In this document: positions 11,583 through 33,401 of the stretch, one piece after another | Layout: each line of letters begins with the position of its first letter | How positions within the stretch are numbered: the stretch's first letter is position 1 | Assembly: GCA_017484225.1 (NCBI GenBank) | Contig: JAFUTN010000044.1 | Coordinates: 4,802 to 68,801 of the forward strand | Direction of reading: 5' to 3' | DNA from: Alphaproteobacteria bacterium | Lineage (GTDB): Bacteria > Pseudomonadota > Alphaproteobacteria > RF32 > CAG-239 | DNA: 64,000 nucleotides | Made by a program: the position numbers and the translations under genes | Notes under the pieces: generated by a model | What the model was told of the DNA's origin: nothing | The model's database searches: none | The model's input: only the letters and a program-made list of their open reading frames with translations

Positions 11583-14399
11583 TTATTTTTCGGAAGTTTC
11601 ATAAGTATCGCCTAAATGATCTTCTGCAACTTCTTTTACTTTTTCAATAAATTTTTGTTCAAATGCTTTTCCTTTATCTGAATTAAAGTATTCATATTTA
11701 TACCACTGTTCATAAAAATTTTCGTATGGCTGAGGTATATGTGCATAAAAAATATTTATACCCTGTTTTCTGTATGCCTGCATTTTCTGTTTAAAATCAA
11801 GAATACGCGCCTGTTCATTTTTTGATATATTAACAAACAACAAAATATTATTTTTATTTTTTTGATTTAAATACTTGCCAAAATTAAGAACATCATTTGT
11901 TGAAATTTTTTCATCAACCGAACTCAATATAAATAATCGTTTGCCTGATGATAACATGACCTCAAAATTTTCAATACGCTTTTTATATCTGTCAATAAAC
12001 TTATCTTTGTCATATTGAGAACAATCCTGATCATGATTATAGTAAATACCATATTTAGAATTAATCCATAATTTATTTGTTTGATCCCACTCTAAATTGT
12101 TGAAATAATCACTAAATTTTGATTTAACCACTCGCACTGTTGAATTAAAAGAACATACACATAAGTCAAACGGACAACTAAGTTCACCTTGTTCTTTATG
12201 TGCTTTCATATTATATCTTGTTAAAACAGTTCTGGTAAAACAACATTCTCCCAAGCTTATGAAATAATTGTTAGGAAAAACAGCCTCAGAAATTTTCAGT
12301 ATTCTTTTCAAATTAGCCAAAGATTCTTGATAAATGTTCCTCTGCAACTTTTGTAAATTTTTGACTATACTCATGTAATGCTCATTAGACATTTCTATAG
12401 CATTTTTCATAGCATCTGACAAATCATTATTGGTTTTGTAACTGATAGAATTTGAATTATCAAACAAATTAACCGAAGTTTGAAATTTTTCAGCTATTAT
12501 ACAAGGAATACTAAAGCCGTATATTAACTGATAAGAACCGCTTGAACCACAACTGATGTAACGTTCATGTTGTTTATTTTCCGGATCAAATAAAGGCAAA
12601 TAAAAATCAGCCTTTTTCATTTCATTATACATATCTTTATAACTTAACCGACCCATGAAATCTATGTATGGTTTTATATGTTCGGGAACATTTAAATTGC
12701 CTGCTCTTGCTATAACCGTAACTTTAAAATTTTTAATACCTCTTTTTAAAATATTATCTATTGCATCAATCAACACAGAATGATTTTTACGTTCGCTTTC
12801 AATTTGTCCCACACATACAAATGTCGTTAAGTTATGTTTTTTTAGTCTATTAAAAGTTTCAAAAAAATGAGCATTTACCATAGACACATTTTCACTTTGG
12901 AAAATAGGAAGTTTATTTAAGGAAACAACCTTGAATTTATCGCTTTGGGGCTTAATATCTGCATATTGATCAGCATGATGACATAAAGTTAAGACCTTCC
13001 CTTTGGGAAGTTGAATATTTTCTCCAATATACTTCAAAACCGGCACAAAACCTTCATCATTAATATACACTCGGTCTGAATTGATATAAAGGTGCATATA
13101 TCTCTCTACAATATTGTGGGTGACTATTTTTAATATATCATTGCGAGACATTGCGAAGACATGAAACTTTTCATCCTTAATGCCTGCAAACGGTTCCAGA
13201 TTACTTTCTTCTTCCGTTAAACATACATCTACATTATACCCTAAATCCAAAAAATATTTAGCCATCCCCGGTAAACACTCTCCGTGAAAATAATTAAATT
13301 CTATCATTAGAACACTGTTTTCACGAACGTCGTGACATAAAAAATCATAAAATTTATCATTTTTTATTATTTTAACGTTTGGTGCCGGAAATTTATATTC
13401 GGAACAAAAAATAGGTATAAAACCAAAAAGATTATATTTTTTCTTTTCTATACATATCAAAGGTTTATCAAGATATAAATTTAAACTTTCTTCATTTTTT
13501 ATTTCTGCATATTCTTTATAAGATGAGTTTAAAGAATTCAAAACAATTATAAACTTTAGAATATATTGTTTAATTAACTCATATTTATCATTTTCTTTTG
13601 CCTTTCCAATGAATTCTATTAAAAAATGTATTCTGTCATAAATAAACAAAGCCTTGTCCTCATTATCTATTTTTTGAGACAAAATATATAAAATCAAATC
13701 ATCAAAAATAGAGCAAACATCAACTATGTGAGCAGGAGTTATTTTATGTGTTAGAGAATCATCATTATTAAAGTAGTGATAGTATACATCATCAATAATC
13801 TTGTAACTTTTTATATGACATAAAAAGTGGGCTATAAAATATAAGTCTTCGCCTAGTAAAGATTTCTTAAAACCAATTTTATTTTTCTCAACTATTTCCT
13901 TTTTATATAACGCGCTCCACCATTCATAAGTAAAGACAGCAACAATATTCCCTTTATGTTTTTTTATTATATTATTCAAAATTCCATTTTTATCAGTTTT
14001 TTTACCAGACTCGTATGCCGTATTTCCCTTAATTATATCTATCTCACCATTATTACTGTTTTGATAAAGTCTTTCATAAAAATTCTCATCTACCCAATCA
14101 TCTGCATCACAAAAAGCAAGATATTTACCTCTGGCCACATTAATTGCACAGTTTCTGGCAATAGCAGCCCCTTCATTTTTTTTATGGACAACTATTATTC
14201 TCTTATCCTTTGTTGCATATTTATCCAGAATTTGACCTGACCCATCTGAAGAACCATCATTAACACAAATTATTTCTATATTTTTAATTGTTTGTTTTAT
14301 TAAGCTGTTTAAGCATCTGCCCAAGAACTTTTCTGCGTTATAAACCGGAACTATTACACTTATAGCAACATCATCTGAGTTAGTTGAATTATTCACCAT
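11583..14399 (-). CDS. Multi-module glycosyltransferase: N-terminal GT2, internal K-Y-x-L-F-G-x-P-I-F tail repeat, then two further domains
   Basis: N-terminal SVIVPVYNAEKFL...CDADDW GT2 signature (DxD). At residues ~320-340, KKKYNLFGFIPIFCSEYKF matches the C-terminal tail repeat found on other GTs in the locus, suggesting a fusion to a downstream ~600-aa region with further transferase-like domains. Confidence 0.6.
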   Translation of the reverse strand: MVNNSTNSDDVAISVIVPVYNAEKFLGRCLNSLIKQTIKNIEIICVNDGSSDGSGQILDKYATKDKRIIVVHKKNEGAAIARNCAINVARGKYLAFCDADDWVDENFYERLYQNSNNGEIDIIKGNTAYESGKKTDKNGILNNIIKKHKGNIVAVFTYEWWSALYKKEIVEKNKIGFKKSLLGEDLYFIAHFLCHIKSYKIIDDVYYHYFNNDDSLTHKITPAHIVDVCSIFDDLILYILSQKIDNEDKALFIYDRIHFLIEFIGKAKENDKYELIKQYILKFIIVLNSLNSSYKEYAEIKNEESLNLYLDKPLICIEKKKYNLFGFIPIFCSEYKFPAPNVKIIKNDKFYDFLCHDVRENSVLMIEFNYFHGECLPGMAKYFLDLGYNVDVCLTEEESNLEPFAGIKDEKFHVFAMSRNDILKIVTHNIVERYMHLYINSDRVYINDEGFVPVLKYIGENIQLPKGKVLTLCHHADQYADIKPQSDKFKVVSLNKLPIFQSENVSMVNAHFFETFNRLKKHNLTTFVCVGQIESERKNHSVLIDAIDNILKRGIKNFKVTVIARAGNLNVPEHIKPYIDFMGRLSYKDMYNEMKKADFYLPLFDPENKQHERYISCGSSGSYQLIYGFSIPCIIAEKFQTSVNLFDNSNSISYKTNNDLSDAMKNAIEMSNEHYMSIVKNLQKLQRNIYQESLANLKRILKISEAVFPNNYFISLGECCFTRTVLTRYNMKAHKEQGELSCPFDLCVCSFNSTVRVVKSKFSDYFNNLEWDQTNKLWINSKYGIYYNHDQDCSQYDKDKFIDRYKKRIENFEVMLSSGKRLFILSSVDEKISTNDVLNFGKYLNQKNKNNILLFVNISKNEQARILDFKQKMQAYRKQGINIFYAHIPQPYENFYEQWYKYEYFNSDKGKAFEQKFIEKVKEVAEDHLGDTYETSEK

Positions 14400-14417
14400 G
14401 GCATATCCTAAAAAACA

Positions 14418-14630
14418 CTAATCTAATACTTCTCTTTGTTTAACTTTTATTTTTAAGACCAATAATCCAAATAAATAGTACTTTGTAATGTTATTTTCTG
14501 AATCAATCACTCTTTTAATAAAAGGGATTTCTAATATTTTCCATATTTTTTTATTGTTGCGAATTTTCCAGCTGTATATGGGTATAAAACACAACAATTT
14601 CAATTTAAAAGATTCTTTATTCTTAGACAT
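14418..14630 (-). CDS. 70-aa ORF made only of three copies of the glycosyltransferase tail repeat (stand-alone or remnant)
   Basis: LLCFIPIYSWKIR / KIWKILEIPFIKRV / KYYLFGLLVLKIKVK. Same repeat as the C-termini of the 17875, 27734, 28848 and 32007 genes. Confidence 0.35.
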   Translation of the reverse strand: MSKNKESFKLKLLCFIPIYSWKIRNNKKIWKILEIPFIKRVIDSENNITKYYLFGLLVLKIKVKQREVLD

Positions 14631-31997: not shown

Positions 31998-32006
31998 AGA
32001 TTTTTC

Positions 32007-33401
32007 CTACTTTTTGGTTATCTTAAACAATGGCATACCAAACAAATAATACTTTGTTGTATTCATTGATTTTTGCCTGATTTTGAAAAACGGAATACCC
32101 AAGAAACGCCAAATTTTTTTCGTCGGCTTTTCTTTGCAACTCATAAACGGAATCAGATTAAAAAGCAAAATTTTTTGTTTGTTTCCATTTTCAATTATTT
32201 TGAATAAAGGAAATGAATTAAATAATTTAATATGCACACTCTCCCATAAAAACTCGTTTATGTTTAATGATTTTCTATTTTCAGGCTGATTACATTTTTT
32301 AAAACCGTGTGCTATAATCTCTGCAGCTTTATCCCAAGAAAACAACTTAGAACGTTTTAAGCCTTTTTGTGCCATTTTTTTGCGTAATTTTTCATCAAAA
32401 TAGTATTTTTCATAAGCTTCAATATGCTGCTCATCACTATCATAATCAATCATAATACCGGCATCACCGACAACCTCCGGCAAAGAACTGTTGTTTGAGG
32501 TAATTACCGGACAACCGCAGGACATTGCCTCTAAAGGAGGCATTCCGAATCCCTCATATTGCGAAGTATAAACAAACCACTCGGCATTGGAATACAAAGC
32601 ATTCATATCTTCATCATCAACATAGCCGGCACGGATAATTTTGTTTTTATACTCGGCATATTCCGGAACTTCATTTTCAAATTTTTCAATAAACCCGCTC
32701 CATGAGCCTCCTCCGAGAACAAATACCAAGTCATCTATCTTATTTTTTTGAATGAATTTGATAAACGTTCTTACTGAACGAATTAAATTTTTACGCGGTT
32801 CCAGAGAACAAAGTGAAAACAGATACTTTTTGTCTGCCGGAATATGATACTTTTTACGCACACTTTCGGTCAGTTTTACTTTCGGCTTATATTCCTGATT
32901 GGTGGACAAAGGAATGGTGACAATTTTTTTCGCATCAATTTTCGGATAATATTGCAAAAAATCTTTAGTAGTGTAGTCGGAAATTGAAAATCCGTAATCT
33001 TCTTCAGTCAACGATTTGGCAAAATCATAAAACCAACCTATTCCATCATTAAAATATTCCGGACAAACATTAGGAATACAATCATATAAAACGGAAAAAC
33101 AGGGAATTCCGGTTTTTCTGATTTTATCGGCAGTTTTAAATACCGGTGAAAAATGCACATCCATTTTCTTTATGTCACCGGAGCATATTTTCAAATGCGG
33201 TATTTTATCGGCAAAATCATCAACAAACTTCATTGTCTCCATCATGTTCGGCGAATACAAATAAATATCTAAGTCATCTCGCTTTGACATTGCCTGCAGA
33301 ATCCTTAGTGTCGTCCAAAATATACCGCTTCTGCCGGAGTCTTTCACATAAAAGTTACCCAAAATTGTTGCATCAAACAAAACTTTCACTTTACTTTTCA
33401 T
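32007..33401 (-). CDS. GT-B (family 4-like) glycosyltransferase with a C-terminal tail repeat (3 copies)
   Basis: ...[37 protein letters not shown]... GT4 E-x7-E region. The C-terminus is [11 protein letters not shown]...[15 protein letters not shown]...[15 protein letters not shown]. Confidence 0.75.

Follow-up and report, generated by a model that had tools for sequence, protein, structure and literature searches.

The window analyzed here is a 64,000-nucleotide stretch of contig JAFUTN010000044.1 (positions 4,802 to 68,801, forward strand) from an Alphaproteobacteria bacterium. It contains two glycan-biosynthesis sub-clusters, both on the minus strand (9.7-19.3 kb and 26.7-35.5 kb), several of whose enzymes carry a lysine-rich tandem repeat of 19-20 residues (consensus KKKYKLFGFIPLLKIKKKGN; core L-F-[G/N]-x-[I/L]-P), here called the LFGxIP repeat. 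On sequence grounds we conclude that this repeat represents a putative, hitherto undescribed domain family whose functional kind is broadly familiar. The repeat is ancient, dispensable in orthologues, and portable among enzyme folds and among phyla. Each copy is predicted with high confidence to fold as one β-hairpin with F-G/N at the turn, and with about even confidence we propose that the repeat is a modular peripheral membrane tether at the inner membrane.

The repeat is confined to the glycan sub-clusters and is old

Seven minus-strand genes of the window hold 16 copies of a basic and hydrophobic repeat, all in coding frame. Circularity was avoided by building two hidden Markov models (HMMs), for long and short turn spacing, from non-window sequences only; the family criterion was a 20-residue period, the core given above or the one-shorter [FL]-[LF]-G-x-P, and Lys/Arg flanks. 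Shuffling all window open reading frames (ORFs) 20 times gave background maxima of 8.7 and 12.5 bits, and reversed sequences gave a maximum of 9.5. These foreign HMMs recovered 15 window copies above or near the shuffled background, among which the 12 copies of the glycosyltransferases P341, P362, P376 and P464 and the first copy of the small ORF70 scored 14-31 bits, over every shuffle. The single copy of the fusion protein P938 (10.7 bits) and the third copy of ORF70 (9.4 bits) lie just over the 8.7-bit long-spacing shuffle maximum and at or near its 9.5-bit reversed maximum. Nothing scored when all other ORFs of the 64-kb window were scanned with the foreign HMMs, thus confining the repeat to the two glycan sub-clusters.

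Matches are limited to the coding frame, and the genes concerned all lie on the minus strand. When codon-aligned, the copies share a mean nucleotide identity of 49% (maximum 73%) and use the same codon at only 51% of identical residues, and identical stretches between tails reach 12 nucleotides (nt) at most. These values exclude that the copies stem from a recent duplication within the genome, from a DNA-level element or from homologous recombination between tails today, and they leave no room for the recombination hotspot that the first-pass annotation had envisaged. The repeat copies are old, and the repeat is a protein-level feature.

Carriers in the window

The sub-cluster enzymes were assigned by Pfam to glycosyltransferase (GT) families GT2, GT4, GT8 and GT32/Caps_synth. 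Also encoded are a GDP-mannose dehydratase-type enzyme, a related epimerase, a cytidylyltransferase, an EptA-like sulfatase-family transferase and DgkA; of the window ORFs scanned, none encoded Wzx, Wzy, an ABC exporter or a ligase. The contig corresponds to the metagenome scaffold ENA ERZ28656039 scaffold_559. The closest named relatives of the window proteins come from metagenome-assembled genomes (MAGs) labelled Alphaproteobacteria. Judged by sequence scores, six proteins of the cluster certainly carry the repeat and two more doubtfully, with 1-4 copies each. The first-pass annotation had counted at least eight carriers. ORF70 is a carrier that it had missed, P329 is unsupported, P351 is borderline (9.0 bits) and P938 lies just above background (10.7 bits). 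Otherwise the repeat lies in frame where it had been placed, on minus-strand genes whose catalytic folds (GT2, GT4-like and GT8) agree with Pfam. The unit is longer than the roughly 17 residues first given, and P376 and P464 exceed the supposed maximum of three copies.

All carriers are encoded on the minus strand. The GT4 enzyme P464 (gene 32007-33401) ends in four tandem copies (32010..32240; aa 388-464; 14.6-23.6 bits), and the GT2 enzyme P376 (gene 27734-28864) likewise bears four tandem C-terminal copies (27767..27994; aa 291-366; 14.0-19.4 bits); the two tails align column for column. Two canonical C-terminal copies each are found in the GT4-like P362 (gene 28848-29936; repeats 28866..28982; aa 319-357; 25.8 and 26.0 bits), which matches Glycos_transf_1 with E=6e-16, and in the GT2 enzyme P341 (gene 17875-18900; repeats 17881..17997; aa 302-340; 30.8 and 23.1 bits). 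The same two copies are present in a P341 orthologue of 55% identity from an Alphaproteobacteria MAG (L003).

ORF70 (14418..14630) is a free-standing 70-residue ORF built entirely of three copies, and the HMM that detected it had been trained without it. The foreign HMMs gave 15.6 bits for the first copy, 8.1 bits for another and 9.4 bits for the third. ORF70 aligns with copies 2-4 of P464, has a GGAG 7 nt before its ATG, and sits 18 nt upstream of the P938 start codon. An identical protein is called on 12 contigs.

The gap between ORF70 and the GT2 gene at 14926-15999, at window positions 14634-14925, holds only an 85-residue helix-turn-helix (HTH) remnant of a serine recombinase (14665-14922, plus strand). 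Two loci on related contigs, L051 and L054 (both 3209-3799), have a complete 196-residue Resolvase+HTH gene in the same gap, which indicates a deletion of about 500 nt in the window. A promoter-like TTGACT-16-TATACT at 14700-14673 on the minus strand does not rise above the AT-rich background. Invertible or phase-variable control of the ORF70-P938-EptA operon is possible.

The 938-residue fusion P938 (gene 11583-14399) contains a single internal copy (13389..13445; aa 319-337) between a GT2 module and the GT4-like and DUF1796 modules, with a score just above background. By Pfam this protein is a four-part fusion of GT2 (aa 14-219), the repeat, a GT4-like region (about aa 518-600) and DUF1796 (aa 713-870), a putative papain-like peptidase that is unusual on a glycosyltransferase fusion. 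In the GT8 enzyme P351 (gene 30942-31997) two degenerate C-terminal copies (30954..31052; aa 316-348) are borderline, the first reaching 9.0 bits and the second going undetected; GT8 homologues elsewhere have canonical copies at the same C-terminal place. The phosphoribosyltransferase-like P329 (gene 29949-30938) was rejected as a carrier: its claimed N-terminal copy (30840..30893; aa 16-33; RRHIYLFGVKVFSYKKKN) lacks the invariant proline and obtains 3.3 bits from the foreign HMM. The Pribosyltran match of P329 is itself weak (E=4e-4).

Repeat anatomy and predicted structure

In 216 in-register database copies the period is exactly 20 residues, with the consensus K-K-K-Y-K-L-F-G-F-I-P-L-L-K-I-K-K-K-G-N. 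The proline at position 11 is present in 100% of these copies, L6 in 91% and F7 in 88%, and position 8 is G or N in 69%. Net charge is about +3.8 per repeat. Positions 6-13 have high hydrophobicity values and positions 1-3 and 14-20 strongly negative ones, and the Wimley-White interfacial energy of positions 4-13 is about -3.6 kcal/mol; the helical hydrophobic moment is not dominant. A variant subtype has one residue fewer ahead of the proline (F-L-G-x-P). Many tails contain a differentiated three-hairpin unit, A-B-C (...LFGFLPLYxxKxxGGRxxWKxLGLPxFKxRKMxNGITTKYYxLGxPxxKxSKK), which is kept alike on GT2, GT4 and GT8 enzymes and whose pattern is followed by P464 (as A-A-B-C), P376 and ORF70 (A-B-C).

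AlphaFold2 (AF2) modeled full-length P464, from an alignment of 68 sequences, as a GT-B fold followed by eight strands (residues 390-462) that make four hairpins, with a mean predicted local distance difference test score (pLDDT) of 89 overall and 75-89 in the tail. The same eight strands were obtained for the tail alone from 15 tail sequences (mean pLDDT 90). Tail pLDDT ranged from 75 to 94 across predictions, and only strands were predicted there. The modeled hairpins turn at F-G/N(-x), with the proline as second residue of the return strand. Strand register and per-position hydrophobicity together indicate that polarity runs along the hairpin, not across the sheet faces: the tip and 3-4 residues on each side are hydrophobic or aromatic, whereas the base and the inter-hairpin loops are Lys/Arg-rich. 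The amphipathic segment that had been expected is replaced, in the models, by β-hairpins graded from hydrophobic tip to basic base. A Foldseek search with the full-length P464 model matched only GT4 enzymes. Listed beside the predicted tail structure were DUF3836, the single-layer sheet of CagA, Rhs/YD shells, OspA, outer-membrane protein barrel fragments and the CROPs of TcdA.

Absence from described families

The suggestion that the repeat belongs to no described family held up. At normal thresholds, Pfam-A (2025 copy) and NCBIfam (2026) matched no part of the tails; PDB sequences searched with a profile returned nothing, and full-text literature searches for motif strings and for β-hairpin membrane anchors on glycosyltransferases found nothing relevant. 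The missing Pfam entry may reflect the fact that every genome match is a MAG. When six tails, including those of P464, P376 and ORF70, were scanned with hmmscan at a relaxed E<=10, the window tails matched DUF5963 (PF19388) alone and below threshold, with 15.6 bits for the P464 tail against a gathering threshold of 23. Weak DUF5963 matches were also present in 6 of 40 relatives (best E=0.002, all under the cut-off), and a distant relation to this family is possible. Neither the MORN and MORN_2 models nor CW_binding_1 (PF01473) matched any of the six tails at E<=10, and Gas_vesicle (PF00741; gathering threshold 25 bits) did not match those of P464, P376 and ORF70.

One database relative, P0008, has four near-identical KIKLFGIPLLKIR copies at aa 663-733, which reached 36 bits on positions 19-33 of the Gas_vesicle model when the isolated tail was scanned alone, as four 15-residue stretches. 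The GvpA hairpin shares a Gly-tipped motif, x-L-[FV]-G-[IV]-x-L-L-x-[IL], and shows a hydrophobic sheet to an interface, but the likeness covers 15 residues in this one relative and the flanking GvpA helices are absent. The match is probably a local, convergent resemblance. The LFGxIP hairpin repeat merits a domain-family entry of its own.

Distribution across proteins and genomes

An exhaustive HMMER search of 1.84 billion representative proteins with a two-repeat profile found 219 carriers at E<=1e-3, nine of them at E<=1e-10. Together with the 49% mean nucleotide identity of the window copies, this result argues against a recent duplication of one gene's 3' end, the alternative named in the first-pass annotation. 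Word-indexed protein searches with a tail or with the two-repeat profile returned 0 and 3 matches, respectively, which indicates that short lysine-rich repeat queries are largely invisible to a word index.

Repeat position was tallied for the best 150 of the 219 HMMER matches plus three fragments from the word-indexed search. The repeat stands at the extreme C-terminus in 91 of these proteins (1-4 copies), at the N-terminus in nine and internally in 11; the other 42 are short proteins of at most 160 residues, in part gene fragments and in part genuine-looking three-hairpin mini-proteins. Internal copies in database fusions sit between catalytic domains, as in P938, which is consistent with fusion of a tail-bearing gene to its downstream neighbor. 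The module is accessory and not catalytic, since many P464 orthologues (46-59% identity; 415-437 residues) stop right after the GT4 domain while others have 1-4 copies.

A Pfam census of 86 matches of at least 200 residues was dominated by GT2 (33), GT8 (17) and GT4 (11), followed by aldo/keto reductases (6), by Stealth, FkbM methyltransferase, Caps_synth/GT32 and HAD proteins (2 each), and by single SDR, TupA ATP-grasp, Capsule_synth, aminoglycoside N-acetyltransferase and ResIII proteins. This spread bears out the proposal of a portable module on catalytically unrelated enzymes. A restriction to glycan enzymes, which the first-pass annotation had proposed to check, holds for the overwhelming majority of carriers, with ResIII as an exception.

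ResIII, found in 2 of 40 carriers scanned, and HSDR_N are type I restriction R-subunit-like Pfam matches. They most likely belong to the database proteins P0106 (1261 residues) and P0127 (980 residues), both with a three-hairpin tail at their end, a combination that departs from the usual glycan setting; in P0127, residues 632-972 are in addition GT8-like.

A genome scan, with one genome per species, was limited to the single subtype [KR]x[YK]LFGFIP[LI], and its taxonomic picture is thus a biased lower bound. It yielded 47 loci, all from bins or MAGs and, where the record title names a source, from gut or faecal samples. Twenty-nine belong to Alphaproteobacteria, "Rickettsiales", Rhodospirillaceae, Enterousia or unclassified proteobacteria, six to Melainabacteria/Gastranaerophilales/Cyanobacteria, four to Puniceicoccales and three to Akkermansia; Bacteroides, Muribaculaceae, Mailhella, Holdemanella and an unclassified bin or MAG contribute one locus each (5). 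Across these 47 loci no partner gene is conserved within 6 kb of the carriers, and a dedicated neighboring partner gene was rejected on this basis.

A membrane tether as the favored reading

A mechanism is proposed in which the tandem copies form a small antiparallel β-meander. The hydrophobic and aromatic hairpin tips (L-F-G/N-F-I-P-L) would dip into the inner membrane from its cytoplasmic side, entering that leaflet as a comb of greasy fingers, and the Lys/Arg-rich strand bases and inter-hairpin loops would form a basic collar that binds anionic lipid head groups. Soluble glycan-assembly enzymes without a transmembrane (TM) segment would thereby be held where lipid-linked acceptors sit. The carrier enzyme families use cytoplasmic nucleotide sugars on lipid-anchored acceptors. 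We infer both that the tips insert and how they are oriented toward the membrane, and we place the acceptors at the cytoplasmic face because of what is generally known about GT2, GT4 and GT8 enzymes of lipopolysaccharide (LPS) and capsule pathways.

Several observations point to this tether: the hydrophobic tips, the basic charge, the hairpins predicted by AF2, TM-less glycan enzymes as carriers, the terminal or inter-domain placement, the lack of a conserved partner gene near the carriers, and the precedents of TagA and the cytotoxins. No TM-like or signal-peptide-like segment was detected in any carrier, the maximum 19-residue Kyte-Doolittle average staying below 1.5; EptA and DgkA of the same locus reach 2.7. 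In the same cluster, GT2 enzymes that lack the repeat have basic hydrophobic ends whose last 30 residues carry net charges of +6 and +7, which suggests a role equivalent to that of the repeat tail. A cationic sheet bearing 2-4 hairpins tipped by Phe, Leu or Ile has the look expected of a peripheral tether in one leaflet.

Two functional precedents are closest, TagA and the three-finger cytotoxins. In TagA, a C-terminal appendage tethers a glycosyltransferase to the membrane and its removal releases the enzyme (PMC6493773); WecG is likewise reported to be peripheral (PMC9804384). These appendages, like the terminal helices of TagB, MinD and FtsA, share with the LFGxIP repeat a short basic and hydrophobic end on a soluble-fold enzyme with a lipid-linked acceptor. 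They differ in being amphipathic α-helices that are single-copy and specific to one enzyme family, whereas the repeat is predicted to form tandem β-hairpins with G/N-x-x-P turns, varies in copy number, and occurs on GT-A, GT-B and non-GT folds. An α-helical amphipathic C-terminus, the hallmark of the TagA/WecG type, does not appear in the AF2 models, whose tails contain strands only.

A mechanical analogy is offered by the hairpin loop tips of three-finger cytotoxins and the spikes of discoidin C2 domains, which are hydrophobic and insert in the interface while flanking Lys/Arg residues bind anionic lipids. This is a works-like analogy only: these domains are secreted, disulfide-rich or β-sandwich, and non-repeat, and have no sequence or evolutionary relation to the LFGxIP hairpins. 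Snake three-finger cytotoxins bind anionic membranes (PMC3084733).

Three points weigh against a simple tether. GT2, GT4 and GT8 carriers alike strongly conserve the polar inter-hairpin loops of the A-B-C unit (GGR, RKMxNGITTKYY), which hints at a specific partner and not at generic lipid binding. Free-standing three-hairpin mini-proteins, namely ORF70 and several database matches, are left unexplained. The third point is the history of MORN repeats (PF02493/PF07661), which have a 23-residue period and resemble the present repeat as short tandem β-hairpins in an elongated antiparallel sheet that was once proposed for membrane recognition. Long assumed to be membrane binders, they proved to be protein-protein modules, and TbMORN1, with its overall negative charge, did not bind membranes (PMC7725318). 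MORN repeats differ, however, in consensus and give no HMM match, and the 20-residue repeat is strongly cationic with hydrophobic tips.

Alternative roles

The main rival, which we regard as rather unlikely, is that the module serves assembly: the hairpin sheets of enzymes and mini-proteins would associate, by face-to-face stacking or edge-strand augmentation, into a multi-enzyme complex with or without membrane contact. Carriers are encoded side by side: the window has eight, and many of the 47 foreign loci have 2-4. A single-layer sheet with two hydrophobic faces would need a partner surface. The stand-alone three-hairpin ORFs could serve as adaptors, the loop conservation across unrelated enzymes fits a protein partner, and MORN repeats act as dimerization modules (PMC7725318). 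A charge of +3.8 per repeat nevertheless disfavors self-association without a polyanion such as the membrane, and copy number (1-4) and sequence vary freely among orthologues. Assembly and membrane contact are compatible with each other.

Binding of a substrate or carrier appears improbable. The basic aromatic sheet would here bind the carrier pyrophosphate and polyprenyl, lipid A-core, or a growing anionic glycan, and so raise local acceptor concentration or processivity. Such a role would suit a module restricted to glycan-pathway enzymes, sugar-modifying reductases and methyltransferases included, and Tyr, Phe and Lys are residues characteristic of surfaces that bind carbohydrate and phosphate; however, enzymes whose acceptors differ greatly share this tail, which has no Pfam match to CW_binding_1 or any carbohydrate-binding family. 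CW_binding_1 modules are aromatic-Gly β-hairpin repeats of about 20 residues that, in glucansucrases and the CROPs of TcdA/TcdB, likewise form C-terminal tandem arrays on glycosyltransferase-containing proteins. They bind extracellular ligands, whereas LFGxIP carriers have neither a signal peptide nor a TM segment, nor an HMM match to this family. A secreted cell-wall-binding repeat was ruled out because the carriers lack a signal peptide. An outer-membrane β-barrel was likewise rejected: the carriers are cytoplasmic nucleotide-sugar enzymes, tails with two repeats have four strands only, and the hydrophobic stretch spans merely 4-5 residues or so on each side of the tip.

That the repeat is no functional protein module, and arose as a by-product of a 3'-end DNA or RNA element or of a recent 3'-end duplication, is almost certainly wrong: the copies do lie at gene ends in an AT-rich region, but this origin is refuted by their nucleotide and codon divergence, by an amino-acid pattern kept across phyla in 219 protein clusters, and by matches in the coding frame only.

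The membrane-tether reading can be extended, tentatively and at somewhat less than even confidence, to an unrecognized class of monotopic anchor made of Phe-tipped, Lys-collared β-hairpins in place of helices. Such an anchor would be a standard tether, and perhaps a co-clusterer, of glycan enzymes in several uncultured gut lineages (RF32-like Alphaproteobacteria, Melainabacteria, Puniceicoccales and Akkermansia relatives), with the mini-proteins acting as nucleators or adaptors.

How soluble-fold glycosyltransferases find lipid-linked acceptors, and whether they operate as organized assemblies, is understood case by case, mostly in terms of amphipathic helices. The LFGxIP repeat is a single short module that recurs on glycan enzymes of GT-A, GT-B and non-GT folds in at least four phyla. 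The portable-module interpretation, generalized across phyla, is strongly supported, and a membrane-anchoring or docking role is plausible. If the repeat is a membrane or assembly tag, glycan enzymes of the membrane surface could be annotated in metagenomes by a simple sequence signature, engineering would gain a compact β-type targeting tag of 40-80 residues, and the organization of assembly lines for LPS and capsule could be approached through it in gut Alphaproteobacteria and Melainabacteria.

Other features of the window

Between the two sub-clusters (22723-26553) lie two large ORFs. The 532-residue ORF has no Pfam match, and the C-terminus of the 687-residue ORF matches PilS/Bundlin (type IV pilin-like), with a faint MORN_2 match in the same protein. 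Genes for a Ser/Thr protein kinase, a PP2C phosphatase and a VWA-domain protein stand in a row at 4690-7595 (minus strand), and an ORF of 2057 residues occupies 55694-61867 (minus strand). The window also contains a HydF gene, which fits an anaerobe.

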